A stretch of DNA of 64,000 bases from Corallococcus sp. AB018 (GTDB taxonomy: Bacteria > Myxococcota > Myxococcia > Myxococcales > Myxococcaceae). Under the pieces are notes generated by a model, which was not told the origin of the DNA, made no database searches, and saw only the letters and a list, made by a program, of their open reading frames with translations. Position 1 is the stretch's first letter. Each line of letters opens with the position of its first letter. Below, in pieces: positions 34,879-64,000 of the stretch. The position numbers were made by a program, and so were the translations under genes. Location: positions 1 to 64,000 of the forward strand of contig NZ_RAWR01000021.1 of NCBI RefSeq assembly GCF_003986945.1, written 5' to 3'.

Positions 34879-35505
34879 TTCCGCCAGGCCCGGGGCAGGT
34901 GGGCACGAGAGTGGAGCCAGTCCTTGCCCCCCCCTACCCTCGCGGTCGGACTGAGCTGAGCCTTCAGAATCCTGCCGAGCAGCCTCAGCGTCCGCAGCAG
35001 CGGCTCCTTCGACTCGTCCTGGTGCGTCTTCTGAGCGGGCGTGCACTTCCGGGTCGCGTCAACCGGCTCCTCCAGGCCCACGTAGGCGCACGCGAAGCGC
35101 TCCGGTGAGAGGAACTCGCCCAGCCACCGTCGCTCCTCGCGCGGAAACCAGGCGGCGAAGAGGCCCCGCATCTTCACGGGCTCCCTCGCTCCATCCTTGA
35201 AGGGACTCATGAAAGAAGGCACGAGCCTGACCGAGCAATTGCCGTTCCAGCCAGCGGCAGCTCAATCCGGGCCTTCGAGTTCCGCTCGTCCGTTTCGGGG
35301 ACGGCCCCTCATTTCGACCCTGGACAGCCGAGACGGGCGACCCTCTCGAGGGAGCGAGCCCTCCTCGATGGACTCTCAATCCGAGACAGCCTGACGTCCC
35401 AGCATGAGACAGCAGGGACAATCAGCCGGCGGTGAGGCCGTGAAGCATGGAGCACGATACCTGCATGGAGGCGCAGGCAGCAGGAAGCACGTGGGACACA
35501 TGTGA

Positions 35506-45406: not shown

Positions 45407-45484
45407 GAGCCGCCCTACTCCTGGCTGCATCCCGCGCTGACGGCTCCGTGCTCCAACACGGAGCCGTCACCCGGACGGGGCGCT

Positions 45485-46924
45485 TCACTCGCGTTTGAGT
45501 GACACCCTCGCCATCCGGGAGAGAGTCTTCGTTGGGAGCGCCGTCACCGACGGACGGGCCGGGTACACGGCCGCCAGTGTTCCCAAGAGGATGTGCAGCA
45601 GGAAGAGCAGTGGCGTCTGCCGGTACTCCCACTCGGAGAAGCTCTGGGCGAAGGCTCCCAGCAGGCCGAAGAAGACTCCGATTCCGAAGCGTGAGCGCAG
45701 CGCGGGCGAACGCTTGAGGAAGAAGCTGGCTCCCATCTTGAACCAGCTCAGCCAGACCGCCGCGAAGAGGATGACCCCGGGCCAGCCTGTCTCTCCCAGC
45801 GTGATGAGATACAGGCTGTGTCCCGGAGGGGCCTGGGCCGCGTCCACGTTCGAGCCCGCCGGGATGGGGCCCTTGGGCGGTGCTTCCTCCGTGCCGGTGT
45901 AGGGGATGTAACCGAAGCCGATCATCCGGCCGTACTGGTTGGACACCGCGTAGGACCAGTTGTTCAGCCCGACTCCGAAGACATGGTCCTCCTGCATCAA
46001 CCGGGCGAGGTGGACGTAGGCGCCGCGCCCTTCGTGCTCCTTGCCCCCGAACTCACTGGAGAGTCCTCCTTCGGAATCGAAGCGGGCCTGGAAGGCCGGT
46101 GCCAGCTTGAGGCCCACGGGAATGGCCGCGAGCAACAGCAGGAACGCCACCCCTGCTGTCTTCGGCGTTGGCTTCAACGCCCCACACGTCAAGGCCACCG
46201 CCACCAGGAGCAGTCCTAGCGAAACCAGTCCCGCTCGCGACACGGTGCACAGCACCGAGATGGAGCCCAGGAAGGTGGCCACGCCGCACAGACGTTTGAG
46301 GCGTGGCCCTACGTCCGAGAGCGCGACCGCGAGCAGCACCGGGACCGCGATGAGGTTGAACATCGACACGGTGTTCGGGTGGAACAGCGTCCCGTCCGCT
46401 CGGCTGTGCCCCAACACGACCCGGGAGTGGATCACCCAGAAGCACTCGTAGATGACCGTGATGGCCAGCGCCGCGACGAGGCGCCGGAGGTCCCGCTCGT
46501 TCTTCACGCAGGCCGCGATCGTCACGTACACCATGACGGCGCGGAACATCTTCGACAGCTCGAACAGGCCGAACAACCGGGGCTCGGAGAGCAGGACGTT
46601 CACCGCGTTGTAGGCGAGGAACACTCCCATGATGGCCAGCCCGTGGGGCCACTCGCGCCGCTGGCCTGGCTTGCGATGCCGCAGCTCGTCCACCCACAGG
46701 AAGATCCACAGGAAGTCGAGCCAGCTGAACTCGAAGCCACGCGTGGTGCCGCGGTACCAGGCTCGGCTGAAGAAGTTGAGGGACACCGCCGAGGCGTGGG
46801 TGGTGCCCCAGACGAGCAGGATGACGCAGAGGTGCTTCAGGCGTTCGGACCTCCCGACGGCGTGAATCCCGGCGGGAATGACGACCGCGCACAGGCCCAG
46901 GAAGAGGAGGAACTTCGTCTCCAT
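45485..46924 (-). CDS. O-antigen ligase / Wzy-type polysaccharide polymerase family membrane protein
   Basis: About 10 TM segments. Wzy_C-like motif TVSRAGLVSLGLL and periplasmic loop. Start at METKFLLFLG (46924). Confidence 0.7.
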   Translation of the reverse strand: METKFLLFLGLCAVVIPAGIHAVGRSERLKHLCVILLVWGTTHASAVSLNFFSRAWYRGTTRGFEFSWLDFLWIFLWVDELRHRKPGQRREWPHGLAIMGVFLAYNAVNVLLSEPRLFGLFELSKMFRAVMVYVTIAACVKNERDLRRLVAALAITVIYECFWVIHSRVVLGHSRADGTLFHPNTVSMFNLIAVPVLLAVALSDVGPRLKRLCGVATFLGSISVLCTVSRAGLVSLGLLLVAVALTCGALKPTPKTAGVAFLLLLAAIPVGLKLAPAFQARFDSEGGLSSEFGGKEHEGRGAYVHLARLMQEDHVFGVGLNNWSYAVSNQYGRMIGFGYIPYTGTEEAPPKGPIPAGSNVDAAQAPPGHSLYLITLGETGWPGVILFAAVWLSWFKMGASFFLKRSPALRSRFGIGVFFGLLGAFAQSFSEWEYRQTPLLFLLHILLGTLAAVYPARPSVTALPTKTLSRMARVSLKRE

Positions 46925-47757
46925 CAGCGCGCCGCGATGTCGATGCGCCGGTAGAGCTCGTCTTCCTCGAAGAAGCACGGGAGGAACTCGCCTCCGTCCA
47001 CGTCGTGCAGCGTGTGCCAGCGCGGCTCCGCGTCTCGGCGCTCCATCTGCGAGGCGTGCAGCGCCAGCGCGGCGCGCTTCTGCTCCACCACGCCCCGGAG
47101 GGACACCTTCGTCCGGAAGTCCTTGAGCATCCGCAGTCCCAGCCTCGTCGACACCGTCCCCGCCAGCACCGACCGCTGCTGCCTTCGTGTCCTTCCGAAG
47201 CCCACCATGGGCCAGTGCCTCCAGGCCCATACCGCGTACTCGAACACCGTGACGGGCCGCCCTACCCTTGCCACTGCCTCATGCACGAGGTGGTTCGTGC
47301 TCACGTGGTCCGCGTGTTCGCCCCGAGCGTACGGGACGAAGAGCTGCTCCGGCCGGTGCCTCCGCAGCAGGTCCTCCACCCTGGCCACGGCCGCCTCCCG
47401 GTTCGCGTCCAGCGCGCCGTCGGGAAAGCCCAGCAGGAAGACCTCCGCCTCCTCCACGCCCAGAACCTTCGCCGCGCCCAGCGCCTCTTGCGCCCTCTGC
47501 GCCTTCAGTTCGTCGCGTGAGATCAGGTGCGCGTGTGAGCTGGCGCCGTCCGTCAGGAGGACGATCCGCACCGCCGCTCCCGCGCGCCGCTTCTGCAGGA
47601 TGGCGCCCCCACACCCCAGCGTCTCGTCATCCGGGTGCGGCGCGAACACCATCGCGGGACACCGGAGCTCGTCCTCGTTGAACGTGCGGGCTCGCCGTCC
47701 CAGCGCCAGCCGCTGCAAGCGACGAAGTCCCCTCCTCACCGGGCTTCCGTCCATCAT
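46924..47757 (-). CDS. PIG-L / LmbE-family N-acetylglucosaminyl deacetylase
   Basis: VFAPHPDDETLGCGG motif and HADH downstream motif. The start at 47757 overlaps the upstream gene stop. Confidence 0.7.
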   Translation of the reverse strand: MMDGSPVRRGLRRLQRLALGRRARTFNEDELRCPAMVFAPHPDDETLGCGGAILQKRRAGAAVRIVLLTDGASSHAHLISRDELKAQRAQEALGAAKVLGVEEAEVFLLGFPDGALDANREAAVARVEDLLRRHRPEQLFVPYARGEHADHVSTNHLVHEAVARVGRPVTVFEYAVWAWRHWPMVGFGRTRRQQRSVLAGTVSTRLGLRMLKDFRTKVSLRGVVEQKRAALALHASQMERRDAEPRWHTLHDVDGGEFLPCFFEEDELYRRIDIAAR

Positions 47758-49007
47758 CGCCGCGCTCCTTCCTCGAGGACCGCCTGGTAGAGCTCCGCGA
47801 CCTTGCTTGCCACCACGTCCCAGCTGAAGCGCTGACGCACCTGCGCGGCACCCGCTCGCGCCGCCACGTCCAGCCGCACGGGGTTGGCGAGTGCCTGCCG
47901 CAGCGCCTGGGCCCAGTCCTCTACCTCCAGGGTCGGCACGCTCAGCCCTTCCGGACCAATGGCTCCGGCGAGATCCGCCAGGCCCGAGTGCACCGCCAGC
48001 AATGCCGGCCTCCCCGCCGCCCACGCCTCCAACACCGCCAGTCCGAAGGCCTCGTGCGCCGAGGGCACCAGCACGAGCCTGGAGAGCGCCAGCAGATCCG
48101 GAACCTCGCGGGCCGCGTCCAGGTTGCCGAGGACATGGACGCGCTCGCCGAGCCCCAGTGCCTGGATCTCTCGCTTCAGCTGTTCACCATAGGCCGCGTC
48201 CACCGTCGCGCCCGCGAGGACCAGGTGATGATCCTCGGGCGCCCCCACGGCGAAGGCCCTCACCGCTAGCACCTGGTTCTTCTGCGGAGAGATGCGCCCC
48301 ACCAGGGTGACCACGCGTGCGCGGGCGAACCGGGGCCAACGCTCTCTCGCCCGCTGCGCGCTTCCCGTGGCCATCCGCTTCAGGTCGACCCCCTGATCCA
48401 ACCTCACGGCCCGGTCCCCGACCACCTCGGACAGGGCGCGACGCTCCTCCTCGTTGAAGGTGATGACTCGCGCGGCGTCGTGGATGACGCGCCGGGCACC
48501 GAAGAGCCACCCGATGGGCCGGCCCATGTCCATGAGCCCCGACAGCCGCCGCGCGGTGTCCTGCTCCAGCCAGGACTTCCGCGCCAGCAGTGGCCCATGC
48601 ACGGAGATGACATAGGGGCGCCTCGTGAGGCGCATGGCCGTCCGCACGGCTCCGCCGATGCGCCCCGCCGTGTGCAGGTGCGCCAGGGCGAGGCCCGCGT
48701 CCTTCGCGAGCCGGAGCGGCTCATCGAAGGTGGCCAGGTTGCCGGCATTGGCGACGAGCGCCCTTCGCTTCTCGGCCGGGCCCAGGAACGGACAGAAGGC
48801 CTGATAGCGCAGCAGCGGCACCTCGGGGCCCAGCGCTCGATCCGGCTCCGAGGGCCCCGCCGGTGCGTGCACCTCTGGCCCCCAGCCCAACGCCGCCAGC
48901 CGCCGCGTTACCTCCACGACGTGCGTCTCCGTCCCGCCCCACTCACGCGGGTCGTACTTGCGAAGGACATGCACCACGCGCCGCCCGGGGCGCTCCACAG
49001 CCGTCAT
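47754..49007 (-). CDS. Glycosyltransferase family 4
   Basis: GT4 C-terminal motif VLVPSAHEAFGLAVLEAWAAGRPAL. N-terminal RVVHVLRKYDPREWGGTETHV. Confidence 0.8.
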   Translation of the reverse strand: MTAVERPGRRVVHVLRKYDPREWGGTETHVVEVTRRLAALGWGPEVHAPAGPSEPDRALGPEVPLLRYQAFCPFLGPAEKRRALVANAGNLATFDEPLRLAKDAGLALAHLHTAGRIGGAVRTAMRLTRRPYVISVHGPLLARKSWLEQDTARRLSGLMDMGRPIGWLFGARRVIHDAARVITFNEEERRALSEVVGDRAVRLDQGVDLKRMATGSAQRARERWPRFARARVVTLVGRISPQKNQVLAVRAFAVGAPEDHHLVLAGATVDAAYGEQLKREIQALGLGERVHVLGNLDAAREVPDLLALSRLVLVPSAHEAFGLAVLEAWAAGRPALLAVHSGLADLAGAIGPEGLSVPTLEVEDWAQALRQALANPVRLDVAARAGAAQVRQRFSWDVVASKVAELYQAVLEEGARR

Positions 49008-49176
49008 ATGCACGGGCAAGACGCAATTCATGGACCAGACACTCCGCGCCCCACCCGCGGCGCCCCTCCTTCCCCATTCCCATTCCGAGACGTCTCAATC
49101 CGAGACATCCGGGCGGTGCATGGGCAAGGAGTCAGCTCGCGGGGAGGCATGTCCCCTGCAAGCTGAAGGGCCTGCC

Positions 49177-50383
49177 CGTGAGAGTCACCGTCCTTACCAA
49201 CCTGTACCCGCCCGACGTCCTCGGCGGCTACGAGCTGCTCGCACGAGATGTGGTGGAGGGGTTGGAGCGGCGTGGCCACGAGGTCGACGTCCTCACCAGC
49301 GGCGATGGCTCCGAGAACGGGCGCGTGCTGCGGTCCCTGTGCCTGGCTCGCCGCTTCGGCCGGCCCGCGGGACGGGATCGCCTCCGTCACTTCGCGGCTG
49401 GTGTGCGGAACACGGCGGCGGTGCGCCGCTACTTGAAGGACCATGGCAGGCCGGATGCGGTGCTGGTCATGAGCCTGCGGAGACTGGGGCTCGCGCCGCT
49501 GCGGGTGCTCCACGAGGCAGGCGTCCCCGCGATCGTCACGGTGAACGACGACTGGCCGGTGGCGTTCAGCGTGGGTCGCGACGCGCGGCCCTGGGCTCGG
49601 CTGGGCAGCGTGCTCGACTCGCTGCTGGTGCCTTCACGAACCTGGACCGGCATCCAGCCCGCCGGGGTCGCGTGGCTTTCGGACGCGGTCCGGCGCACGT
49701 GCCTCACGGCGGGTGTGCCGCTGGACTTCGGTGTCGTGCTGCCGCAGGGCGTGGACCTGTCGCGCTTCACCCCTCGTCCCTTCCGGCCCATGCGCCCGGA
49801 GCCTCGGCTGCTCTTCGTCGGCCGGCTCCATCCGAGCAAGGCCCCCGATGCGGCCATCGACACCCTGGCGGCCTTGGAGAAGCGCGGCGTCAAGGCCACC
49901 CTCACGCTCGCGGGCGCGGCGGACGATCCGGCGTATCTCGCGTCCTTGCGGCAACGGGCGCGGGTGCTGCGGGTAGACGGACGCGTGGCATGGGCCGGGC
50001 AACTTCCCCGCGAGCAGTTGCTTCCGCTGTATCAGGATGCGGATGCGCTCCTGTTCGCGTCGAAGCTGGAGCACGAGGGCCAGGGCCTCACGTATCTGGA
50101 GGCCATGGCCTGTGGCCTGCCGGTGGCGGCGTCCCCCAGCGGCGGTGCCCGTGACTTCCTTGATCGGCACGACGCTTCGCTGCTGGTGAAGGCATGCACG
50201 GGTGAGGCCTTCGCCGAGGCGCTGGCGGCCCTCCACCGGGACGCGGCGGCGCAGGAGGTGCTCGTCCAGCGGGCGCTCGACATCGTGCGAGAACACGCGT
50301 CACTCGACGCCTACGTTCGCGGCATCGAGGAACTGCTACTCGATGCGGCTCAAGCTCACTGCCGCCGCAGCACCACCCGCTGA
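49177..50383 (+). CDS. Glycosyltransferase family 4 (GTG start inferred)
   Basis: VTVLTNLYPPDVLGGYE N-terminus. EX7E-like region LLFASKLEHEGQGLTYLEAMACGLPV. No in-frame ATG before the conserved N-terminus, so the GTG at 49177 was chosen. Confidence 0.7.
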
Positions 50384-51249
50384 CCGACGCTCGCGTCCGC
50401 GTTCCCGCTCCGCAGGCGCTGCTCTCCCCACTGGTGTCCCTTCCAATAAGCCCAGTGGTACACGAGCCTCCGGGGAACGGAGAGCGCCAGGCCCGCGGCG
50501 TCGCGCGCCCGGAGGTGCGCGACCGCATCCCTTGCCCATGACGCGCCCAGCTTCCGGGCCAGTCCCGTCAGCGACGCGGGCTCCTCCCGGATGAAGGCAT
50601 CCGCCTCTCCTTCGATGAAGCGGCGCCCGTACAACTGTTTCAGCGTGTAGTTGTGCGAGTGCATCACCCACGCGTCCGGCACGTAGCGCACCCGGAGCCC
50701 GTCGCCGCGCGCCCGGTGTCCCCACTCCGTGTCCTCGGAACCCCACGCGTCCTCGTAGAAGGGGTGCTTGAGCCATGCATCCCGCGTCATCGCCGCGAAT
50801 GGCAGCGAGTACGTCATCCATGGCGGCGGAGTTCCCTGCTCCGGGAACGCGACCTCGTAATCCCTTCGCACCCACGTGTGCGCTTCGGGCCTGGGCAGCT
50901 GCCGCGCGAAGGTCGCGTCCGCCTCCGCGCGCTCGATGGGCTCCAGCAACCGGTCCAGCGCCTGCGGCGTCAGCGGCACCACGTCGGAGTTCTGGAAGAC
51001 GATGATGTCGCCTTGCGCTTCGCGGATGGCCCGGTTGAGCACCACGCCTGGGAAGTACGCCCCAGCGTCGATGCGGATCAGTTGGCAGGGGAAGCGCGAG
51101 ACGATGTCCAACGTCGCGTCCCTGGAGCCCGAGTCCACCACGAGCAACTCGAAGTCCTTGCGCGCCTGCGAGAACAGGCCGGAGAGCGCCTGGCCTATGA
51201 CCCAGGCCGAGTCCTTCGAGCGCATGATGACGGTGACCTTGCGACTCAT
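50356..51249 (-). CDS. Glycosyltransferase family 2
   Basis: VTVIMRSKD...LLVVDSGSRDATLDIV and DxD-region typical of GT2. The start at 51249 abuts the upstream gene stop. Confidence 0.8.
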   Translation of the reverse strand: MSRKVTVIMRSKDSAWVIGQALSGLFSQARKDFELLVVDSGSRDATLDIVSRFPCQLIRIDAGAYFPGVVLNRAIREAQGDIIVFQNSDVVPLTPQALDRLLEPIERAEADATFARQLPRPEAHTWVRRDYEVAFPEQGTPPPWMTYSLPFAAMTRDAWLKHPFYEDAWGSEDTEWGHRARGDGLRVRYVPDAWVMHSHNYTLKQLYGRRFIEGEADAFIREEPASLTGLARKLGASWARDAVAHLRARDAAGLALSVPRRLVYHWAYWKGHQWGEQRLRSGNADASVGQRVVLRRQ

Positions 51250-52454
51250 GGATGATCCCCCAGGCGCAGGCCGAGCTTCCTCGCCACGTGCGCGAAGTTG
51301 GGGTCGCCCGACTCGCCCCAGTACCTCAGATATGCGCGCCGAAAATCCGCTGGCTCTCGGCTTGCCGCTCCCAGCAGTTGCCGCGCGAACTCGGCGTCCC
51401 GGGGCTCGCCCACCTCGAACGCCACGAATGGGAACGCCGCCGCCAGCACCCCTCGCGGCCCTCCGAGCCTCAGCCCCAATCGCGCTCGGAGCCCCAGCTC
51501 GGGTGAAGCCTTTGGCCGGAACCTCACGCCGTTGCGCACCCGTCGCAGCCAGACCTTCGGTTGGAGGCCGCCCTCCTTGAGGGAGTGCTTCAACGCCCGC
51601 TCCGCGTATCCGGACCACTTCAGCCCGGGCACCGACAGCCTCGCGGCCTCACACGTGAGGTGCACCTCCGCGAGCCTCGCCCTCCCCTCGTCCATCCAGG
51701 GCCCCAGCTCGCTTGGGGCGAAGCGCGCGTAGTCCGGCTCCAGGCGGAAGGCGCTCGCCTCGTCGTACAGCTTCCGGAACCCGGCCGGCACGTCGTGCCG
51801 CAGCGCCATCCGCCGCCGCTTCTCCGCGTAGCTCCAGTCGTATGCACCCAGGAAGTACAGCAGCGCGTCGCCGTAGCCGATGATGGCCTTCGCCGTGTGC
51901 CGGAGGATGGTGCGGCGCGCGTCCTCGTCCAGCGCGCCCTGGTCCCGCAGCACCTGGTTGATGATCAGCAGCGTGCCCCGGTTCACCGCCAGGTTCCGCA
52001 CGTCGTCGGGTGGGATGGCTTCTCGCGTGAAGTGCTCGAGCCCCGGAAGGAACGACGCATCCCCCGCCACCGTCTTGTGGCCGAACCGCACGTCGTACCA
52101 GATGACCTGACACGGGGACCTCCGCAGCGCCCGCACCGTCGTCACGCCCAGGTCCAACCCCAGCCCGTGCCGCTCGCGCAGCGGCTCCAGCACCAGGTCC
52201 AGCCGCGCCTTCAGCCCCTCTCGCGGGGCTCGCTCCAGCACCAGGAGGAAGTCGAGGTTGTTGTGCGGCCGTTCGACGCCGTCCCTCTTCTCCACTCCTC
52301 CCTCACCGCGCCCGTAGCCGCCAATGAGGGCCAGCGTCCGCAGCTCGTCCGGGCGCACGTGCCCGTGGATGACGGCCGCCGCTTCGGACACCACCTGGGA
52401 GATCCTCGCCTCCACCTCGGGCGAGCCCTTCAACGTGAAGCGTCCGTCCCTCAC
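51246..52454 (-). CDS. Hypothetical protein with Pol-beta-like nucleotidyltransferase signature
   Basis: LIGGYGRGEGG...NNLDFLLV resembles the hG[GS]-X9-13-DhD nucleotidyltransferase motif. Confidence 0.55.
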   Translation of the reverse strand: MRDGRFTLKGSPEVEARISQVVSEAAAVIHGHVRPDELRTLALIGGYGRGEGGVEKRDGVERPHNNLDFLLVLERAPREGLKARLDLVLEPLRERHGLGLDLGVTTVRALRRSPCQVIWYDVRFGHKTVAGDASFLPGLEHFTREAIPPDDVRNLAVNRGTLLIINQVLRDQGALDEDARRTILRHTAKAIIGYGDALLYFLGAYDWSYAEKRRRMALRHDVPAGFRKLYDEASAFRLEPDYARFAPSELGPWMDEGRARLAEVHLTCEAARLSVPGLKWSGYAERALKHSLKEGGLQPKVWLRRVRNGVRFRPKASPELGLRARLGLRLGGPRGVLAAAFPFVAFEVGEPRDAEFARQLLGAASREPADFRRAYLRYWGESGDPNFAHVARKLGLRLGDHP

Positions 52455-53638
52455 GCCGCCCTCCCTCCCGCGCCCGCCACCGACTCCAGCAGCGCCAGAA
52501 GCCTCGTCACGTGCCGCTCGGGGACGAAGCGCTCCTCGTAGGTCCTTCGCGCGTGCGCCTCCATCGTCCTCCTCAGGCCCGGCGCCGCCATCAGCCTGTC
52601 GATCGCCTCCGCGAGCGCCTCCGGATCATTTGGCGGCACGCCCAGCCCCGTCTCGCCTTCCGTCAGCCACTCCCCCACTCCGCCCACCTGGCTGGCGATG
52701 ACTGGCGTCCCGTGCGCCAGTGCTTCGATGCCCACCAGTCCGGACGTCTCCGGCGCTCGGCTGGGGAAGACGACACACGCGGCCCGCCGGTACTGCCCGG
52801 AGAGCGCTTCGGGCGCCATCGGGCCCAGGAAGGCCACCCGCTTCGACAACCCCAGCACGTCCACCTTCGCGCGCAGCTCCTCCTCCTGCCGGCCCCTTCC
52901 CACCACCGCCAGGCGGCACGGCTGCGTGGTGCGTGTCAGCGCGTGGAACAGCACATCCAGGCCCTTGCCTGTCGTCAGCTGCCCTACGAACAGGAGCAGG
53001 TCCTCCTCTCGCTCCACCGGCACCCGCGACTGGAGCGGAGCTTGCGCGTACAGCGGGACGACGTGCGTTCGTTCGCGCGGGAAGCCATGCGCCGCCACGT
53101 GGTCCGCCATGTACCGCGAGCCCACCACGAAGGCGTGATGACTCCGGGCCAGCGCCTGCTCCTCCCGCAACCTCCCCAGCGAGGCCCACTTCAGCCCGGG
53201 CCAGTCCTCCGAACGGCCCACGAAGCCGAGACATGGGTAGCAGGCCGCGCCCACCGGCTTCGTGCAGGGCTCCTTTCCCAGCGTCGTGTACTTGTGCTCG
53301 CGCAGGCAGAACAGCCGGTGGTCGTGGAAGAAGCGGATCACCGGCGCTGGCGAATCCAACAGTGCGCGCTGCGCCTTCAGGCTCGCGAGCTGGTGCACGT
53401 AGACGACGTCCGGCGCCAGCTCCCTCAGCTGCCGCGCCAGGTCGACGATGGGGAAGATGCCCTCGAACGGCTCCCGCATCACCGGGTGCGGATCCGGCGA
53501 GACGTTCACGTCGTAGAAGAGCAGCGACGTCACGCCCCGCCCGCCCAGCTCCCGCGCGGTCTCCCGCACGTAGCGCTCGGCGCCGCCCACGGGGGTGGCG
53601 GCGTCGTTGAGCCATGCGACCCTCAAGCCGCGGCCCAT
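52451..53638 (-). CDS. Glycosyltransferase family 4
   Basis: VVFPSRAPETSGLVGIEALAHGTPVIAS GT4 motif. Start at MGRGLRVAWL (53638). Confidence 0.8.
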   Translation of the reverse strand: MGRGLRVAWLNDAATPVGGAERYVRETARELGGRGVTSLLFYDVNVSPDPHPVMREPFEGIFPIVDLARQLRELAPDVVYVHQLASLKAQRALLDSPAPVIRFFHDHRLFCLREHKYTTLGKEPCTKPVGAACYPCLGFVGRSEDWPGLKWASLGRLREEQALARSHHAFVVGSRYMADHVAAHGFPRERTHVVPLYAQAPLQSRVPVEREEDLLLFVGQLTTGKGLDVLFHALTRTTQPCRLAVVGRGRQEEELRAKVDVLGLSKRVAFLGPMAPEALSGQYRRAACVVFPSRAPETSGLVGIEALAHGTPVIASQVGGVGEWLTEGETGLGVPPNDPEALAEAIDRLMAAPGLRRTMEAHARRTYEERFVPERHVTRLLALLESVAGAGGRAA

Positions 53639-54846: not shown

Positions 54847-54982
54847 GGTTCTGTCTCAATGTGAGACGGCTCCGAGCGCTCCCGCCGTCCGCGACGGTGT
54901 CTGACATTGCAAGAGCTCCGCCACCCGCGCCCATCCAGGCTGGCTGAACGCTGGCATCCACCGTGCAACCCGTCCGCACCGG

Positions 54983-56842
54983 ATGTTCTCGCTGGAAGAG
55001 GGCCCGGAGCCCGAAACGCAGACGGCGCCCGTGCGACAGGAGTCGGTGCGCTCCGGGTATCCCGTTGATCCCCTGCGCATCGCGCGGGTGCTGCGGCGCC
55101 GCTGGCGGATCATCGCCGGGTGCTTCGTCGCGGGCATCGTCCTGGGCGTGCTGCTGGCCAAGACCGTGATGCCCCGCGAGTTCACCGCCCGCACCATTCT
55201 CGTTTGGGAGCCCACGGGCTCGCGCGCGGCGGCGAACCCCGAGCGGGAGATCCAGACGCTGATGGACACGCTCAAGCTCCCCAACAACCTGGAGGCGCTG
55301 CGCACGCGCACGGGCCTGCCGGTGACCCTGGAGGCGCTGGCCCGGCGGGTGGACATCGCCGTGTCCCGCGGCTCCAACATCCTCACCCTCTCCGCGACCG
55401 CGGCGAGCCCCGAGGAGGCCGTCCGGCTCTCCGACGCCATGACCCAGGTGTTCCTGGACCATCAGCGGGACTCGGAGCGGACTCGGGCCGAGGCGCAGCT
55501 GAAGGCGCTGGGCGAGGAGGTGCTCAAGGTCCAGGCGCAGCTGGAGGAGGCCCGGGCGCACTACGACGGCTTCCGCCAGGAGAACGGCATCGCGGAGTTC
55601 ACGCTCGACCGGCAGTCCTCCATCGAGGAGGCGGCGCGGCTGCGCACCGAGAAGAACCGCTTCCGCATCGAAGCGGAGTCCTCGGACGCCAGGGCGCTGT
55701 TGCTGAAGCAGGCGGCCCGTGAGCAGCCCAGCCGGATGGTGCTGTCGGAGACCGAGAGCTACTTCGAGCTGCGCAAGCTGGCCGAGCTGCGCGCGGAGCT
55801 CGCCGCCCGCGGAGCCAATCTCTCCATGGAACATCCCGAGGTGGTGCAGCTCACCGCCGCCGTGCGGGCCCTGGAGTCCCGGCCCGCGGGTGGCACCGTC
55901 TCCGACCGCGTCGTGGGGACCAACCCCTCCTGGACCTTCCTCCAGAACAGCCTGCTGGACGCTGGCTCACAGCGAGAGCTGGCCCAGAAGAAGTGGCGCG
56001 CCTACGCCGAAGCGGAGGAGGCCGCGAAGGAGCGCATCGCACGGCTCTCCGCCCTGGAGGGCCAGGCCAGCGCGCTGCTCGCGCGGATCCACATCACCGA
56101 GACGCGCCTCACCGAGCTCCAGCAGCGTCAGAAGGTGGTGGAGGGCGAGGTGCGCCAGCCAGCGATGGAGCTGCGCGTGCTCACCTCCGCCACCCCGCCG
56201 ACGCGTCCCTCGAAGTCCTATCGCCGCGCGGTGGCCCTGCTGCTGCCTCCCACCTTCGCGCTGCTGGCCGTGGTGGCCCTCACCGCCTCCTCGCTGCGCG
56301 GCTTCAAGCTGTGGACGCCGGCCGAGTTCTCGTTCTGGGGACGCGGCCCGGTGGTGGCCGCCACTCCCTGGCCCGCCACCGCCGAGGGCCTGGAGGAGCT
56401 CGTCGTGGAGCTCCGGGCCGCGCTGGACGAGGCGAGCGGCGTTACGCGGGTGTTGCCGCTCGGGGAATCGCAACAGGAGCGGACCCGGGAGCTGCTGTCC
56501 CGGCTTGGGGCAATGGACGTCCCAGCCCGGGATGACGTCCCGGGGCGAGGCGCGACGCTCGTTTCGTGGGAGGAGGCGCGGCGTCCGCAGGCGCTGCGGC
56601 TCGCGGTCCGCACGGGAGCGCGGGTGCTCGTCCTCGCCAGCTCCGGCGCGCACTCCGTGTTCGAGGTGTGGGCGCTGCGGCGCCTGCTCGGGAGCGAGGC
56701 GTGCGTCGGCTTCGTGGTGGTGGGGCTCGGCACCGACCTTGCTACCCATCCGGATCGCGTGGGCGACGTCATGGGCTTCTGGTCCGGATCCAGAGCGTCG
56801 AGGGGCATGGAAGGGCCCGTCCCGCGAAAGGAGCCGCGCTGA
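54983..56842 (+). CDS. Polysaccharide co-polymerase (Wzz/GumC-like chain-length determinant) without an obvious Walker-A kinase domain
   Basis: N-terminal TM (IIAGCFVAGIVLGVLLA). Long periplasmic coiled coil. Second TM (VALLLPPTFALLAVVALTA). C-terminal domain lacks a GxxGxGK[ST] motif. Confidence 0.7.
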   Translation: MFSLEEGPEPETQTAPVRQESVRSGYPVDPLRIARVLRRRWRIIAGCFVAGIVLGVLLAKTVMPREFTARTILVWEPTGSRAAANPEREIQTLMDTLKLPNNLEALRTRTGLPVTLEALARRVDIAVSRGSNILTLSATAASPEEAVRLSDAMTQVFLDHQRDSERTRAEAQLKALGEEVLKVQAQLEEARAHYDGFRQENGIAEFTLDRQSSIEEAARLRTEKNRFRIEAESSDARALLLKQAAREQPSRMVLSETESYFELRKLAELRAELAARGANLSMEHPEVVQLTAAVRALESRPAGGTVSDRVVGTNPSWTFLQNSLLDAGSQRELAQKKWRAYAEAEEAAKERIARLSALEGQASALLARIHITETRLTELQQRQKVVEGEVRQPAMELRVLTSATPPTRPSKSYRRAVALLLPPTFALLAVVALTASSLRGFKLWTPAEFSFWGRGPVVAATPWPATAEGLEELVVELRAALDEASGVTRVLPLGESQQERTRELLSRLGAMDVPARDDVPGRGATLVSWEEARRPQALRLAVRTGARVLVLASSGAHSVFEVWALRRLLGSEACVGFVVVGLGTDLATHPDRVGDVMGFWSGSRASRGMEGPVPRKEPR

Positions 56843-56921
56843 GAGGAAGACGCCTTCGCGCGCGTCATCACAGGGCAGCCCTCCGTCCGGCGGGCCCCCC
56901 AGGAACGGAACCGACGACACC

Positions 56922-57854
56922 ATGTTCGCCGTCATCCATCGCAGCGCCGCGGCTCCTGGCGCCGGGTTCCTGTCCGTGGCCGGGCCCCCGCTCGTCACCC
57001 GCCAGTTGCAGTGGCTGCGCGCGTCGGGCTTCGAGAAGGTGGCTATCGACATCGGCGCGGACGCCCATGGAGCAGAACTGCGAAGCCTCGTCTCGCAGCA
57101 GGAGGCGCTGGCCCGCAACGTCATCTTCGTCCCCACGGCTTCGCGGTTCCCGCCGGGCGTCATCGCGGATTCGGCGGGCTTTCCCGCCCACGCGCCCTTC
57201 CTCGTGGTGCCGGACACCGTCCTGGGCAACGCGGACCTCGCGGCCTTCTACCGCCGGGCGCCAGAGCGGGGCGTGCGCGTGGGCCGGCTGACGCCACCAC
57301 CGGCCGTGGAGCCCTTCGCGCCAGCCGAGGTGCACCTGATCACCGCGGCCACCGGCCCCGTCACGGAGGAGGAGCTGCCCGGGTGGGGCGCGCGCCTGGA
57401 GACGCCGGGCGCGGCCCTGCGGCTGGCCTGCAAGGCGCTGCTGGGGCGGCTGCCGCGGGCGGAAGGAACCTCGCGGCTCCTCATCCACGCGGCCGAACGG
57501 GCACCAGGGGTCTGGGTGGCGCGCGGCGCCCTCCTCCAGCGCGGCGCCGAGGTGAACCCTCCCGTGCTCATCGGTCCCCAGGCGCTCGTGTGCGCCGGTG
57601 CGCGGATCGGCCCGGGGGCTCTCATTGGAGCGCGCGCCATCATCGAGCGCGGCACCTGTCTGGTGAACGCCGTGGTGGAAGAGGAGACCGTGGTGGGCGA
57701 GGGCCTGGAGGTGCGCGATGCCATCGCCACGCCCGACGGATTGGCCTCGCTGGAGGGCACCGGTCCCCTGCTCCCGCTGGGAGATCCCCTGTTGCTTGCG
57801 CGGCGCCGGCTCCTGTCGCGAGCGGCGTTGCGTCTGCTGGGGCTCTCCCGATGA
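56922..57854 (+). CDS. Nucleotidyltransferase-like / left-handed beta-helix (hexapeptide repeat) protein
   Basis: Hexapeptide-like IGPQALVCAGARIGPGALIGARAIIERG. Degenerate N-terminal NTP-transferase-like region. Confidence 0.5.
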   Translation: MFAVIHRSAAAPGAGFLSVAGPPLVTRQLQWLRASGFEKVAIDIGADAHGAELRSLVSQQEALARNVIFVPTASRFPPGVIADSAGFPAHAPFLVVPDTVLGNADLAAFYRRAPERGVRVGRLTPPPAVEPFAPAEVHLITAATGPVTEEELPGWGARLETPGAALRLACKALLGRLPRAEGTSRLLIHAAERAPGVWVARGALLQRGAEVNPPVLIGPQALVCAGARIGPGALIGARAIIERGTCLVNAVVEEETVVGEGLEVRDAIATPDGLASLEGTGPLLPLGDPLLLARRRLLSRAALRLLGLSR

Positions 57855-57880
57855 CGGCGGCACGCGCACCGGGAAGCGTG

Positions 57881-59296
<1,416 letters not shown>

Positions 59297-59679
59297 GGTT
59301 TCGGGTCTCCTGACAGGGGGATGCGCTTGACGGGAGCACGCCTCCGGTCCCGGTGATGCGCGAGGCCGGGCACTCGCACATCGGAGTACGCGGGACAGCA
59401 AACGCATCCGTTTGCACAGACCATTCCCGCATGTCGAGACATCCCCTCTGGTTGATCCGGATGCGCTCGGCCAACGACTTGTCCTCTGGCCTGTTTGACA
59501 AATCCCGGCGTTGTCTACGTTTGAGACATCCCGGCGTCCCCAGATGAGACATCCCGGTTCGGGACGCAGACAGGCCCGCGGCGACCTGACACGCACCGGC
59601 AGCGCGTGCGACGCCATGGTTCCTGCCTTGCAAGCGGCAGCCGCCCATGCGTGCGTCAGCGAAGTCAATCCATGCCTGC

Positions 59680-60201
59680 ATGGAGCCGTTGCGCGCCCTG
59701 CGTTCGGACAGGGCCCGGGTGGTGGATGCGGTCAGGGACCGGGGGGCGCGCTTTCCCAGAGCCGCGGCCCTGGCGGATCCGTCCCTATGGGCGGTGGGCC
59801 TGCTGCGGTGGGGAGCGGTGCTCCGGCGCGGACTGGGCACGTCACTGGGCCTGTCCACGCTGTTGCGCGTGGGCTTCCACATCGATGTGTGGACGGATGA
59901 TATCGGCCCCGGCTTGAGGCTGCCGCACCCCTTCAACATCGTCATTGGCGATGGGGTGGAGATTGGCCCGGAGTGCACCCTGCTCCACGGCGTCACCATC
60001 CAGCGGGGCGCGGGCACGCGCATTGGCCGGGGCGTGGTGCTGGCCAACGGCACGACGGTGCTGGCGGGCGCGTCCGTGGGCGACGGGAGCCTGGTGGGCG
60101 CGGCCAGCGTGGTGCGCGGCGCCATTCCCCCTGCGTCCGTCGCGGTGGGCGTGCCGGCGCGCGTGGTGCGGGCGTCCCGTCCCGGGGAGGCGGCTCCGTG
60201 A
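59680..60201 (+). CDS. Hexapeptide-repeat acetyltransferase (serine O-acetyltransferase / WcaB-like)
   Basis: LbH repeats IGDGVEIGPECTLLHGVTIQ...IGRGVVLANGTTVLAGASVGDGSLVGAASVV. Confidence 0.7.
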   Translation: MEPLRALRSDRARVVDAVRDRGARFPRAAALADPSLWAVGLLRWGAVLRRGLGTSLGLSTLLRVGFHIDVWTDDIGPGLRLPHPFNIVIGDGVEIGPECTLLHGVTIQRGAGTRIGRGVVLANGTTVLAGASVGDGSLVGAASVVRGAIPPASVAVGVPARVVRASRPGEAAP

Positions 60202-61340
60202 GGCTGGCCGTCGCGTTGGGGGGAACGGACTGGGGGCGCTCGGGCATTGGCACGTACGTGCGCGCGATGCTGCCCCGGCTGACACGAGGGCTTGCGCGAA
60301 CCGGGGGCCGGCTGGTGGCGCTCGGTACGGCGCGGGACTTCGCCGCGTATGACCCGGAGCTCGTGGGCGCGGAGCGAGCCGTGGCACCGGCAGCCGTCGA
60401 CACGCCCGCGCTGGGTGCATCGTGGTACCTCGCCCGCTGCGGAGCGCATGCGCGCGGGGCCGGGGCGGACGTGCTGCTGCTGCCCGCCGCCAACCGCCGC
60501 GTCGCGCTGCGGCCCGGCCTGCCCACGGTGGGCGTGGTGCACGACCTGGCCCAGTTCAACGTGCCGGACAAGTACGACCGGCTGCGCACCACCTACGTGA
60601 GATGGCTTCTGCCCAAGGCGCTGAGGTCCTTCGAGGCGCTGGCCGCCGTCAGCCAGGCCACGCGCGGGGACATGGTGAGCTTCCTCTCCTGCGCGCCCGA
60701 GCGGATCCACGTCATCCCCAACGGCGTGGACGCGGACCGCTTCGCGCTTGGAGACGGCGCTGGTGCCGCGTGGGCCCGTGAGCGGCTGGGCCTGAAGGCG
60801 CCGTATCTGCTGTACCTGTCGCGCCTGGAGCACCCGGGGAAGAACCACCTGCGGCTGCTTCGGGCGTTCGCCGCGTCCCCGGTGAGTCAGGACCATCAGC
60901 TGGTGCTGGCCGGCGCGGATTGGGGCGCCGAGCAGCTCATCCGGGCGGAGCTCCAGCGGCTGGGGCTCCAGGAGCGCGTGAGGATCCTGGGCTACCTGGA
61001 GGACGGCCTCATCCCGGGCCTGGTCGCGGGCGCGGAGGCGCTCATCGCGGTGGGGCTGTGCGAGGGCTTCGGCCTGCCAGCGCTGGAGGCCATCGCGGCG
61101 GGCAAGCCCGTGCTGGCGGCCCGGGCGGGAGCGCTTCCGGAGGTGGTGGGCGAGCTGGGGGTGTTGTGCGATCCGCTCGACGAGCGGGACATGGCGGCGG
61201 CGCTGACGCGGGTGGTGCGGGACGAGCCACTGGCCGCGCGGGTGCGGCGCGAAGGTCCAGGGCACGCCCGCCAGCGCAGCTGGGACCGCACGGGCGACGA
61301 CCTGCTGGCCCTGTGCCGCGCCGTGGGAGGCGTTCGATGA
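60198..61340 (+). CDS. Glycosyltransferase family 4 (GTG start overlapping preceding stop)
   Basis: LIAVGLCEGFGLPALEAIAAGKPVLA GT4 motif. Confidence 0.75.
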   Translation: MRLAVALGGTDWGRSGIGTYVRAMLPRLTRGLARTGGRLVALGTARDFAAYDPELVGAERAVAPAAVDTPALGASWYLARCGAHARGAGADVLLLPAANRRVALRPGLPTVGVVHDLAQFNVPDKYDRLRTTYVRWLLPKALRSFEALAAVSQATRGDMVSFLSCAPERIHVIPNGVDADRFALGDGAGAAWARERLGLKAPYLLYLSRLEHPGKNHLRLLRAFAASPVSQDHQLVLAGADWGAEQLIRAELQRLGLQERVRILGYLEDGLIPGLVAGAEALIAVGLCEGFGLPALEAIAAGKPVLAARAGALPEVVGELGVLCDPLDERDMAAALTRVVRDEPLAARVRREGPGHARQRSWDRTGDDLLALCRAVGGVR

Positions 61341-62329
61341 AGGCACCCCTTCCCCGAGCCTCGCTGCGAGACGTCCTGCGCGGGCGCGCTCCGCTGGTGG
61401 GCGCGCGCTTCAACGAGGTGCTGCCGCGCGGCTACCTGTCGCCGGTGGAGGCGCGCTGGCTGCTCGGGCTGCCCTATGGAGACCTCGCCGCCGAGGAGGC
61501 GCGCTATCTCCAGGGCCGCACCCCCGCGACGGACTTCGGCGTGATGTTGCGCACGTCGGTGGCTCGCGCGTTGGCACCGCCCGAGAGCGCCCAGCCCGAA
61601 GTGCGCCCGTTCATCGTCTCCGCCCGCGTGGACAACCTCACGCTCGAACAGGCGGTGGAGCAGCTCTTCACGCAAGGACAAGGTGGCCGCGCGAAGCTGG
61701 TGTCCATCGTGCACCCGCACGCCTTGAACCTGGCGGCACGCGACGTGGCGCTCGCGCAGGCGCTGGCGGAAGCGGACATGGTGCTTCCGGATGGCATTGG
61801 CATCCGGGTGGGCGCGGCGCTGCTCGGCGTGGCCATGCGCCACAACCTCAACGGCACGGACCTGTTGCCGCTGCTCTGCAAGCACGCGCCCGTGCGAGGC
61901 TGGCCCGTGGTGCTCGTGGGGGCGGCCCCCGGCGTGGCGGAGGCCTGCGCGGAGAACCTGCGAAGGGCCCACCCGGGCCTGGAGCTCCCCATCGTCTCGC
62001 ACGGCTTCCTCACCGCCGCTGGCTCCCGCGCGCTGGCGGAGTCCATCTCGCGGCTGGGCCCCTGCCTGGTGCTGGTGGGCATGGGCAGCCCCCGGCAGGA
62101 GCTGTGGGCGCGCGAGTACCTCTCCGGGGCCGCGCAGGCCGTCATCCTCACGGTGGGAGGGCTGTTCGACTTCTACTCGGGCCGGATCCAACGCGCGCCC
62201 ATCGCCTGGCGTGAGCTGGGCTTGGAGTGGATGTATCGCCTGCTCCAGGAGCCCCGCCGGATGGCCGTCCGCTACCTGCTGGGCAATCCGCTCTTCCTGC
62301 TCCGCATCCTCTGGCAGAAGCTGCGGTAG
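61337..62329 (+). CDS. WecB/TagA/CpsF-family glycosyltransferase (GT26)
   Basis: LPDGIGI..., GTDLL, and VGMGSPRQELW motifs characteristic of GT26. Confidence 0.8.
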   Translation: MKAPLPRASLRDVLRGRAPLVGARFNEVLPRGYLSPVEARWLLGLPYGDLAAEEARYLQGRTPATDFGVMLRTSVARALAPPESAQPEVRPFIVSARVDNLTLEQAVEQLFTQGQGGRAKLVSIVHPHALNLAARDVALAQALAEADMVLPDGIGIRVGAALLGVAMRHNLNGTDLLPLLCKHAPVRGWPVVLVGAAPGVAEACAENLRRAHPGLELPIVSHGFLTAAGSRALAESISRLGPCLVLVGMGSPRQELWAREYLSGAAQAVILTVGGLFDFYSGRIQRAPIAWRELGLEWMYRLLQEPRRMAVRYLLGNPLFLLRILWQKLR

Positions 62330-62332
62330 GCC

Positions 62333-63835
62333 TCAGGGCGCGTACGTCGGCACCGCGCCGCCCACCGGAGTGGATGCCGCCGCCGCGAGGCGTGCATCCC
62401 GCCGCCACCAGACGAGCAGCGCCATCCCGGTCCCCAGCAGCGTGACGAGCGCGCAGACGCAGGCGCTCCCCAGCGGACCCCGCGAGGCGAACGGCGCGAG
62501 CCCCCAGCCCACGACGAGCGACACGAGGCCCGCGGCTCCGACCGGGGCCAGTGCCCAGAGCACCTCCCGGACGGTCCACTGGACCAGGGCGCGGACCTTG
62601 CGCCAGACGAGCACGGCGATGACCCCGTTTCCGAGGACGGTGCCTCCGGCGACGGCCCACGCACCGGCGTACCGCACCCCGGCCATGGAGACGGCGACGT
62701 TCAGCGCGTGGCCGATGAGCACCGGGTGGGTCAGGTGCCACGGCGTCTCACCGCTCACGGCCAGGGCCGAGGAAGCGCTCTCCTCGGCGGCCGCGATGAC
62801 CGCCGCGGTGCCCAGGAGGACGACCGCGAGCATGGTGACGGAGTCGTGCGCGAGCGCGCCCACCCAGGCCTCCAGCAGGGCGGTGCCATCCAGGGCCAGC
62901 GCGATGACACCGCTGGAGGCCAGGCCGCCCAGAAGGGCCGTGCCAAGGCGAAGCGCGCTGGCGCGGTGCCGGGCATCTCCGAGGCGATGGATGAGCCATC
63001 CGCCCGCTTGCTTCGCGAAGGCGAGGATCTGCTCCACGGCGCGGGAGGCCACCTGATACGCGCCCACCGAACTCAGGGACGCGGAGCGGGTCAGGATGAG
63101 GACATCCGCGCGGACCGCCGCCGCGATGCCCACGTTCATGGCCAGGGCCGCGGCGCCCTGCCGGAACGCGCTGCGCACCTGGGCCGGATCCGCCGGCCAT
63201 CCAGGACGCAGCGAGAGGTGCGGGTCGATGCGCCTGGACACCGCCGCGAGGAGCAGGAGCTCCAGCGTGGCTCCCGCGAACAGCCCCAGCGCCGGCCCCA
63301 GCAACGAGCGCGTGGTGCCGAGCACCGCCGCCGTCAACGCAATCTGGCTCGCGGCTCCGATGGCGCGCGCCCAGGCGAGCGAGGTGTTGGCGCCCCGCAT
63401 CAGCAGGAACGCACGCAACGGTGCCGCCAGCGAGCCCGCGAGTCCTGCCGCGAGGACCGGAAGCGCGGCGCGGGCCACGTCCGCCCGCAGCGCTTCGGAC
63501 GCGGACGGGAGGTGGAGGAAGAACACGTACGCACAGACGCAGAGACAGGGACAGACGAGCGTCACCACCAGCAGCGTGAGGCGGATGAGCTGGCGCGTGG
63601 CGGCATCGTCCGTTCTGGCCGCCGTGCGTTGGACGGCGATGCTGAGGCCCAGGTCCGACAACCCGAGGAGGAAGCCCGTCGTGCCAAGGACGCCCCAGGC
63701 GCCGAGGCTCTCCGGACCGAGCAGACGCACCACCAGCGCGACCGTCGCCAGCCCCGTCACGATCTGCACCACGTGCCGAGCGCACGACGCGAGCACGTCG
63801 ACGCTCATCCTCAGGAGCGATCTCTCAGGGGCCAT
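62333..63835 (-). CDS. Polysaccharide biosynthesis / Wzx-type flippase (MOP superfamily) membrane protein
   Basis: 12-14 predicted TM segments with a Wzx-like profile. Start may be the internal Met at about 63808. Confidence 0.7.
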   Translation of the reverse strand: MAPERSLLRMSVDVLASCARHVVQIVTGLATVALVVRLLGPESLGAWGVLGTTGFLLGLSDLGLSIAVQRTAARTDDAATRQLIRLTLLVVTLVCPCLCVCAYVFFLHLPSASEALRADVARAALPVLAAGLAGSLAAPLRAFLLMRGANTSLAWARAIGAASQIALTAAVLGTTRSLLGPALGLFAGATLELLLLAAVSRRIDPHLSLRPGWPADPAQVRSAFRQGAAALAMNVGIAAAVRADVLILTRSASLSSVGAYQVASRAVEQILAFAKQAGGWLIHRLGDARHRASALRLGTALLGGLASSGVIALALDGTALLEAWVGALAHDSVTMLAVVLLGTAAVIAAAEESASSALAVSGETPWHLTHPVLIGHALNVAVSMAGVRYAGAWAVAGGTVLGNGVIAVLVWRKVRALVQWTVREVLWALAPVGAAGLVSLVVGWGLAPFASRGPLGSACVCALVTLLGTGMALLVWWRRDARLAAAASTPVGGAVPTYAP

Positions 63836-63890
63836 GCACCCCTGACCATTGCAGCCCGTATGCCGTAGCGCGTGGGCCGACGCGGTGGCT

Positions 63891-64000
63891 CAGCCCCGGG
63901 ACTTCACGGCGCGGACGCCGATGACGACTTCGTAGTGGGGGTCATGCACGTCGAGGTCGGCGGTTCGCAGGTCCTCCCGAGCCAGGCCGTGCAGGGTCGC
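63891..64000 (-). CDS. 3' end of a truncated CDS (product unknown) running off the window
   Basis: Open frame ...LHGLAREDLRTADLDVHDPHYEVVIGVRAVKSRG followed by a stop. Confidence 0.3.

Follow-up and report, generated by a model that had tools for sequence, protein, structure and literature searches.

We used codon-position GC content together with Pfam and NCBIfam profile scans to call the genes of a polysaccharide locus of the Wzx/Wzy type at positions 45485–63835 of a 64,000-nucleotide (nt) stretch of myxobacterial DNA (Corallococcus sp. AB018, contig NZ_RAWR01000021.1, positions 1 to 64,000; the whole stretch is referred to below as the window). The G+C content of the window is ~70%, and codon-position GC therefore tells real genes from shadow open reading frames (ORFs). 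Judged by sequence, the window is Corallococcus exiguus DNA: the Wzy-like protein of the locus shares 99% identity with one from C. exiguus, and an exact copy of the GT26 protein is encoded on contig RAWQ01000165.1 (GCA_003668965.1) of that species. An earlier note on this DNA had described a Wzx/Wzy-type gene content over 18 kb. The gene content is borne out, with some corrections; the locus is larger, running from ~33070 to ~64600 (~31 kb) on the basis of conserved neighbours and shared regulatory sites. The genes at 1–31 kb of the window are unrelated to it.

The leftmost three genes of the core lie on the minus strand and encode a Wzy_C-family membrane protein of 479 amino acids (aa) assigned as the polymerase (45485–46924; a weak Pfam Wzy_C match), a PIG-L/LmbE-family de-N-acetylase (46924–47757; Pfam PIG-L, 107.2 bits) and a 417-aa GT4 glycosyltransferase (GT), GT4a (47754–49007), whose start is shared with Pyxidicoccus. 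A second GT4 gene on the plus strand, GT4b (49178–50383), is not in the Pyxidicoccus locus. Four minus-strand genes follow, encoding a GT2 glycosyltransferase (50356–51249), a 402-aa protein that belongs to no Pfam family and has a nucleotidyltransferase and HEPN-like fold (51246–52454), GT4c (52451–53638), coupled to the 402-aa gene through a GTGA overlap, and an AlkP-superfamily Phosphodiest protein (53623–54846; Pfam, 47.2 bits). On the plus strand are the genes for a 619-aa Wzz-type polysaccharide co-polymerase (PCP; 54983–56842) and a 310-aa left-handed beta-helix (LbH)/GMPPB_C-like protein (56922–57854), and on the minus strand that for a sigma-54 activator with receiver, AAA+ and HTH_8 domains (57881–59296). 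A hexapeptide (serine-O-acetyltransferase-like) acetyltransferase (59647–60201), GT4d (60198–61340) and a GT26 enzyme of the WecG/TagA family (61337–62329; Pfam, 174.7 bits; TIGR00696, 139.8 bits against a cut-off of 69) are encoded on the plus strand, and a Wzx-type flippase of the Polysacc_synt family (62333–63835) on the minus strand. The window ends within a minus-strand methyltransferase gene that precedes Wzx, of which it holds the 3' end (63890–64000). Glycosyltransferases and the acetyltransferase were assigned from Pfam and NCBIfam. The profile scans find four GT4 genes where five had been claimed, and all six coupled junctions proposed earlier (46924, 47754, 51246, 52451, 60198 and 61337) can be read in the sequence as stop/start overlaps. 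Two gene calls were revised. A minus-strand ORF at 56868–57884 was discarded, as codon bias and public gene calls favour the plus-strand LbH/GMPPB_C-like gene, which also has a profile match; and a GT4a start at 49031 was replaced by the ATG at 49007, because the ATG at 49031 falls within a conserved promoter-like element (see below).

To the left of this core lie five genes that belong with it. A 602-aa PMT_2/PMT-like GT-C membrane glycosyltransferase (33070–34878, minus strand; Pfam PMT_2, 29.1 bits; PMT, 26.8 bits) has an 86% identical orthologue near the Pyxidicoccus locus, and its ATG overlaps the stop of the preceding small ORF (ATGA). The small ORF (34875–35222, minus strand; 115 aa) matches no family and is the first gene of this operon. 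On the plus strand are the genes for an Acyl_transf_3 membrane O-acyltransferase (35506–36696; Pfam, 76.3 bits), whose orthologue lies beside the Pyxidicoccus Kelch gene, and for two Kelch beta-propeller lipoproteins rich in Cys, Ser and Thr (36820–41046 and 41678–45406). The whole of this left flank is kept beside the Pyxidicoccus locus, and Kelch genes also flank the locus in Archangium and in another Corallococcus (sp. CP114039). The Kelch genes had been described as neighbours of the locus. They do adjoin it, but they are not mere neighbours, being conserved beside it in three genera with the same palindromes upstream.

The Kelch paralogues are 70–76% identical over most of their length, with a 631-nt spacer between them, and contain long Cys/Ser/Thr-rich repeat regions in which second codon positions are GC-rich. 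The Kelch2 and Wzy genes converge on a strong inverted repeat, GACGGCTCCGTG...CACGGAGCCGTC (45441–45471), which probably terminates transcription from both sides. A scan of 31000–64000 matched no Rfam family, nor was there any sigma-70-like consensus; sites resembling terminators are fewer than expected by chance.

The assembly proteins match their profiles to differing degrees. Wzx scores 40.3 bits against Polysacc_synt (cut-off 28.2) and the PCP 26.5 bits against Wzz (cut-off 25.5). The likeness of the PCP to Escherichia coli Wzc is confined to the periplasmic part, and neither Pfam and NCBIfam scans nor the comparison with Wzc gave a match to a tyrosine-kinase or P-loop family in its 619 residues. 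The 479-aa protein scores 26.7–27.3 bits against Wzy_C, under the cut-off of 31.7. No other Wzy_C protein is encoded in the locus. The family includes ligases, and the 479-aa protein has relatives across Myxococcota and Verrucomicrobia. The LbH protein matches generic left-handed beta-helix enzymes only, and no NTP-transferase domain was detected in its N-terminal half; in relatives its gene adjoins one for a priming transferase of the Bac_transf family. For the AlkP-family protein, sequence comparison gave no relative of solved structure. The PIG-L enzyme predicts, from its family, a de-N-acetylated sugar. The GT26 protein carries an N-terminal extension of ~140 aa that aligns with the linker region of a Bac_transf-WecG fusion from Hydrogenedentes; the idea that it is a Bac_transf vestige is unsupported, as it gave no match to a 120-sequence priming-transferase hidden Markov model (HMM).

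Five sites resembling sigma-54 (-24/-12) promoters precede transcription units of the locus. On the minus strand, TGGAACGGCAATTGC (TGGAAC-N5-TTGC; 35235–35249), with one mismatch to TGGCAC-N5-TTGC, heads the small-ORF/GT-C unit; its Pyxidicoccus counterpart is TGGAACGGCACTTGC, and the region upstream of the small ORF is ~88% conserved. The minus-strand site TGGTCCATGAATTGC (TGGTCC-N5-TTGC; 49023–49037) lies 16 nt from the GT4a ATG and is kept, with a varying spacer, in Pyxidicoccus, Archangium and Corallococcus sp. Between the divergent AlkP-family and PCP genes are two sites: TGGCGGAGCTCTTGC (TGGCGG-N5-TTGCA; 54909–54923, minus strand), at the head of the AlkP-family/GT4c/402-aa/GT2 operon and in a 17-nt block identical in Pyxidicoccus, and TGGCATCCACCGTGC (TGGCAT-N5-GTGCA; 54952–54966, plus strand), 17 nt from the PCP ATG. 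The latter is shared with Pyxidicoccus, Archangium and Corallococcus sp., where it heads STAS, PCP, Bac_transf and LbH genes. The fifth, TGGTTCCTGCCTTGC (TGGTTC-N5-TTGCA; 59617–59631, plus strand), is 16 nt from the acetyltransferase ATG and is kept in the form TGGTTTCCGCATTGC in three other Corallococcus, in which the flanks diverge. At all five the GG-N10-GC spacing is kept across genera while spacers and flanks change. Three of the sites (ending at 54966, 59631 and 49023) stop 16–17 nt before conserved starts with no Shine-Dalgarno sequence between; leaders would thus be ~4–5 nt long and the mRNAs nearly leaderless.

A second element accompanies these sites. The inverted repeat GTCTC-N5-GAGAC, allowing at most one mismatch, occurs eight times in the window against 3.1 expected. 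Six of the eight copies are intergenic (35373, 35396, 49092, 54853, 59513 and 59536), and intergenic DNA makes up ~7% of 33–64 kb (binomial p ~3e-6 to 7e-5). The copies at 35373–35410 form a pair of candidate activator sites, and the same 23-bp pair is found in Pyxidicoccus; GTCTACGTTTGAGAC and GTCCCCAGATGAGAC form another pair at 59513–59550, and in both pairs the copies are exactly 23 bp apart. Exact palindromes stand at 49092–49106 (GTCTCAATCCGAGAC) and, directly upstream of the ATG of the AlkP-family gene, at 54853–54867 (GTCTCAATGTGAGAC). Palindromes lie 60–160 bp upstream at four of the five promoter-like sites; the sole palindrome of the AlkP-family operon lies between promoter-like site and start codon. 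Other Corallococcus have three or four tandem palindromes at the place equivalent to 59513–59550, C. exiguus contig RAWQ01000165.1 carries an exact palindrome upstream of the methyltransferase gene, and matching intergenic palindromes are present in six other myxobacterial loci (other Corallococcus, Pyxidicoccus, Archangium and Sorangium). In gene clusters without an adjacent activator, none was found in Cystobacter, Pedosphaera or Hydrogenedentes, and locus L009 has a single copy, outside the cluster. The motif GAGACATCC, unlike the palindrome form, is not enriched.

The embedded activator is the likely reader of these elements. It had been described as an NtrC-type sigma-54 activator, and its Response_reg, Sigma54_activat (238.7 bits) and HTH_8 (46.5 bits) domains, GAFTGA loop and Fis-type helix-turn-helix (HTH) agree with this. 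In four Corallococcus species its phospho-acceptor Asp position is occupied by Glu (CLELVLDD, compared with LLDLLLPD in Aquifex NtrC1), and there is no kinase gene within the locus; phosphorylation is therefore an unlikely means of switching the protein. Control by a ligand, on the analogy of cyclic di-GMP (c-di-GMP) acting on EpsI/Nla24, is possible. Palindromes and promoter-like sites together most likely mark a local sigma-54 regulon driven by this activator, as judged from their conservation and placement. A further block, GTTTGCACA(G/C)(A/G)CCATTCC(C/T)GCA (59400–59425, plus strand), lies ~110 nt upstream of the activator start and is common to other Corallococcus; its spacing is unlike that of sigma-54 sites, and it may serve as a promoter for the activator gene itself or as an operator.

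Comparison with orthologous loci (C. carmarthensis, C. aberystwythensis, Pyxidicoccus xibeiensis, Archangium gephyra, Sorangium sp., Cystobacter fuscus and Corallococcus sp. CP114039) revealed a graded loss of genes. In C. carmarthensis, genes for an outer-membrane polysaccharide exporter (OPX; Poly_export and SLBB domains) and a STAS protein stand between the AlkP-family and PCP genes, and a 251-aa Bac_transf priming transferase is encoded between the PCP and LbH genes. All three are present in the C. carmarthensis and C. aberystwythensis loci; Corallococcus sp. CP114039 has STAS and Bac_transf and lacks OPX; and C. exiguus and Pyxidicoccus xibeiensis have a locus without any of them. The matching intergenic gaps in the window measure just 136 and 79 nt. 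In Pyxidicoccus ~70 nt of the STAS 3' end is left upstream of the PCP gene, and the genes were therefore deleted. The absence of a priming transferase and an OPX gene from the window, as first noted, stands: a six-frame search of the whole 64 kb, with the priming-transferase HMM and relatives' OPX and STAS proteins as queries (OPX from C. carmarthensis and Archangium), matched Bac_transf, OPX and STAS in no frame. The earlier note had looked for the priming enzyme and Wza past nt 64000. They are not just past that point, because C. exiguus contig RAWQ01000165.1 carries other genes there, namely one for a 236-aa methyltransferase upstream of Wzx and, after it, those for an aminotransferase, a P450 and an enoyl-CoA hydratase. 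A database search returned no close homologue of the C. carmarthensis Bac_transf protein named C. exiguus or Pyxidicoccus; with no trace in the window either, the C. exiguus priming transferase seems to have been lost rather than moved.

The genes that remain are maintained by purifying selection. Ratios of nonsynonymous to synonymous substitution (dN/dS) are 0.0–0.37 between two C. exiguus strains, 0.15–0.51 against Pyxidicoccus and 0.2–0.56 against more distant loci, with 0.12–0.15 for the LbH gene, and 15 of 15 core ORFs are intact in the two C. exiguus strains and Pyxidicoccus. Since in-locus OPX and Bac_transf have been lost and the other genes are under selection, initiation and export would be borrowed in trans or the product would be cell-associated. 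C. exiguus and Pyxidicoccus xibeiensis share the reduced architecture, and for most proteins compared C. exiguus is closer to Pyxidicoccus xibeiensis than to its congener C. carmarthensis (LbH, 91% versus 81%), a hint that the reduced form was exchanged horizontally. Elsewhere the lost domains occur in fusions: STAS-Bac_transf (P0350), and Bac_transf-WecG in the Hydrogenedentes locus (L010 13393–14742). That locus has the same run of GT4, 402-aa and GT2 genes along with a second GT4, Wzx, Wzy and an AlkP-family gene.

In fold, the 402-aa protein resembles aminoglycoside nucleotidyltransferases (Pol-beta type), with a HEPN-like part. Members of its family are 45–52% identical over Myxococcota, Planctomycetota, Hydrogenedentes, Armatimonadota and Mariprofundaceae; relatives fall into ~183 clusters (50% identity) at E<=1e-30 and 713 at E<=1e-10. 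The motif GGYGRGEGGV...PHNNLDF is invariant in the family, as are, in the 402-aa protein, GGYGRGE and D68/D101, while the first Asp of the D-x-D motif is replaced by an invariant Asn (NNLDF). From the aminoglycoside nucleotidyltransferases ANT(3'')(9), ANT(4') and LinB the protein differs in several respects: sequence identity is just 12–13%, a C-terminal helical domain is added, the usual first metal-binding Asp of D-x-D is that Asn, and the protein is found in glycan loci, often fused to a GT4. Many relatives are ~780 aa long with a GT4 domain in front (P0377 and ~20 other representatives), mirroring the GTGA-coupled GT4c/402-aa gene pair. The adjacent AlkP-type phosphodiesterase gene is part of the same conserved core in Archangium, Sorangium, Hydrogenedentes and Cystobacter. 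One might speculate that the 402-aa protein and the phosphodiesterase add and trim a nucleotide- or phosphate-containing sugar substituent. A larger proposal, which we offer as a long shot, is that the GT4, ANT-like and AlkP trio, found in several phyla, installs an undescribed substituent on the lipid-linked sugar, for example by transient O-nucleotidylation trimmed to a phosphate or phosphodiester, and that the sigma-54 regulon of the reduced form directs the glycan onto Kelch lipoproteins or the cell surface and not to secretion.

Taken together, these observations suggest that the ~31-kb region is probably a glycan-assembly island with a Wzx/Wzy core and its own sigma-54 regulon, present here in a reduced form that has lost its in-locus OPX, STAS and Bac_transf genes and belonging to a type with a patchy distribution in Myxococcota; a sub-core of GT4, 402-aa, GT2, AlkP-family, Wzy, Wzx and GT26 genes is found in other phyla too. 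The activator would bind the GTCTC-N5-GAGAC palindromes in divergent intergenic regions and fire the -24/-12 promoters of at least five units: small ORF and GT-C; GT4a, PIG-L and Wzy; AlkP-family, GT4c, 402-aa and GT2; PCP and LbH protein; and acetyltransferase, GT4d and GT26. A priming enzyme encoded elsewhere would make a lipid-linked sugar to be extended by GT26, the four GT4 enzymes and GT2. The PIG-L enzyme would de-N-acetylate it and it would be acetylated, with a possible change by the 402-aa/phosphodiesterase pair; the unit would then be flipped by Wzx, and Wzy and the PCP would together see to its polymerisation. For export the product would use an OPX encoded elsewhere, or the product would be cell-bound, perhaps together with the Kelch lipoproteins and the PMT-like GT-C.

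A characterised pathway might account for the locus instead. The exopolysaccharide (EPS) locus of Myxococcus xanthus, eps (MXAN_7415–7451), is of the Wzx/Wzy type and by analogy comparable in its NtrC-like activator of receiver-AAA+-HTH organisation inside the locus, and the two share, besides a PCP that lacks a fused kinase, a GT26, a GT2, GT4s and an enzyme resembling serine acetyltransferases (PMC7484181, PMC4877007); EpsI/Nla24 binds c-di-GMP (PMC4877007). The biosurfactant polysaccharide (BPS) cluster (MXAN_1025–1052 with a distant wzaB) likewise has Wzc, Wzy and Wzx among glycosyltransferases and no exporter gene nearby (PMC7310880). These shared parts speak for a C. exiguus copy of the EPS, BPS or major spore coat (MASC) pathway, which we nevertheless hold to be very improbable. 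The resemblance to eps with its EpsI/Nla24 activator, and the difference from it, were both anticipated by the earlier note, and all six Eps equivalogs of NCBIfam fall far under their cut-offs, with scores of 20–108 bits against 150–800 (EpsA, 107.7, cut-off 500; EpsC, 73.5, 150; EpsD, 42.6, 370; EpsE, at most 97.8, 400; EpsH, 34.2, 800; EpsV, 20.1, 800). The EpsZ-type priming transferase and EpsY exporter have no counterpart in the C. exiguus locus, which has in addition PIG-L, 402-aa, AlkP-family and LbH proteins and an activator with Glu at the acceptor site; PIG-L, nucleotidyltransferase-like and AlkP-family proteins are outside the eps component list (PMC7484181). In the BPS pathway a tyrosine kinase is fused to WzcB (PMC7310880), whereas none was detected in the C. 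exiguus PCP. When the Wzy and 402-aa proteins were searched as markers against ~5.8 billion proteins, named matches to both were from Corallococcus, Pyxidicoccus, Archangium, Hyalangium, Cystobacter, Sorangium and Byssovorax, then from other phyla. Among the best 120 for each, only some of them named, no match was named Myxococcus, while Pyxidicoccus, close to Myxococcus, matches both markers at 83–84%. M. xanthus is reported to have exactly three Wzx/Wzy pathways (PMC7310880), and with no marker match named Myxococcus the locus appears to represent an additional one lacking in Myxococcus, apparently not an orthologue of the EPS, BPS or spore-coat MASC loci. The BPS cluster remains instructive: its wzaB lies 1 Mb away (PMC7310880), so the OPX that serves a Wzx/Wzy pathway can be encoded at a great distance. 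PEP-CTERM/XrtA exopolysaccharide loci have a dedicated sigma-54 response regulator, PrsR, and it is to this system that the PCP, the Wzy-like protein and several GT4s have their best, though weak, NCBIfam matches; scores are well short of the cut-offs (TIGR03007 for the PCP, 59.6 versus 278.9; TIGR03097 for the Wzy-like protein, 32.2 versus 188.1; TIGR02915 for the regulator, 346 versus 502.6), and no exosortase was found among the ORFs scanned.

The deletions themselves raise the question of whether the locus still makes anything. A decaying remnant, without product since the loss of primer, STAS and exporter, would fit the stepwise series within Corallococcus, the STAS remnant in Pyxidicoccus, the want of a close C. 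exiguus-named homologue of the lost priming transferase and the failure to find any of the three genes in the 64-kb window. We consider it quite unlikely, since all 15 core ORFs are intact, dN/dS is well under 1 for every gene, including LbH, the usual partner of the lost transferase, promoter-like sites and palindromes are kept in the reduced form, and codon bias is strong throughout. Less easily set aside, although still on the unlikely side, is a cell-bound glycoconjugate, either an O-antigen-like chain or a glycan of the Kelch lipoproteins, with the Wzy_C protein or the PMT-like GT-C as ligase or transferase. Ligases of the WaaL and PglL types belong to the Wzy_C family, and the source names give this protein as an O-antigen ligase family protein; three lineages tolerate the loss of OPX; and Kelch, Acyl_transf_3 and PMT-like GT-C genes are conserved neighbours with the same palindrome pair upstream. 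Yet the PCP is retained under selection, the same Wzy family (65–82% identical) is present in loci that have OPX, the core occurs without Kelch genes in Cystobacter and Sorangium, and the locus holds no second polymerase candidate. The reading as a glycan-assembly island with its own regulon has points to answer as well. The step-by-step disappearance of the OPX, STAS and priming-transferase genes could be the sign of a pathway that is being abandoned, and the polymerase candidate scores below the Pfam Wzy_C cut-off in a family shared with ligases. A loose sigma-54 consensus is found 70 times in the window against 74 expected, so that the promoter calls rest on conservation and position, and the DNA preceding the acyltransferase/Kelch and methyltransferase/Wzx units yielded no canonical -24/-12 site. 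Binding of the activator to the palindromes is deduced from their co-occurrence in a handful of loci, with the palindrome-bearing Sorangium locus counted without established activator status. The absence from Myxococcus is read from those lists in which only some proteins are named, and expression of the locus and production of a polymer are predicted from sequence alone.

Elsewhere in the window, a signalling cluster ~30 kb from the locus encodes a receiver-GGDEF diguanylate cyclase (17099–18490, plus strand), a hybrid histidine kinase (19039–20580, plus), a single-domain response regulator (22495–22920, minus) and a CheW-like protein (16243–17151, minus). A bacterial counterpart of the major vault protein of eukaryotes is encoded at 7444–9777 (minus; MVP_shoulder, 151.9 bits, with Vault, Vault_2, Vault_3 and Vault_4 repeats), and a valyl-tRNA synthetase at 11315–14842 (minus) has a C-terminal tail of ~115 aa matching histone H1-like HC2 and extensin-like low-complexity models. 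At 1951–3696 (minus) a LysM protein is encoded whose C-terminal domain is like VgrG3 of the type VI secretion system (181 bits); it and, separately, an Imm11-family immunity protein (30502–31158, plus) may be parts of toxin/immunity systems.

The locus is an uncharacterised case of a well-known type of system, distinguished by its predicted regulon, its deletion series and one conserved enzyme family. That family, the relatives of the 402-aa protein, has no Pfam model and is regularly fused or coupled to a GT4, making it a concrete target in the search for a new glycan-modifying activity. The dedicated sigma-54 circuit yields precise predictions of promoters and binding sites, and the deletion series (full; without OPX; without OPX, STAS and primer) offers a natural test of whether Wzx/Wzy modules share priming and export in trans. 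The social behaviour of myxobacteria is explained largely by three Wzx/Wzy polysaccharides known from work on M. xanthus; Corallococcus, Pyxidicoccus, Archangium and others apparently carry one more.

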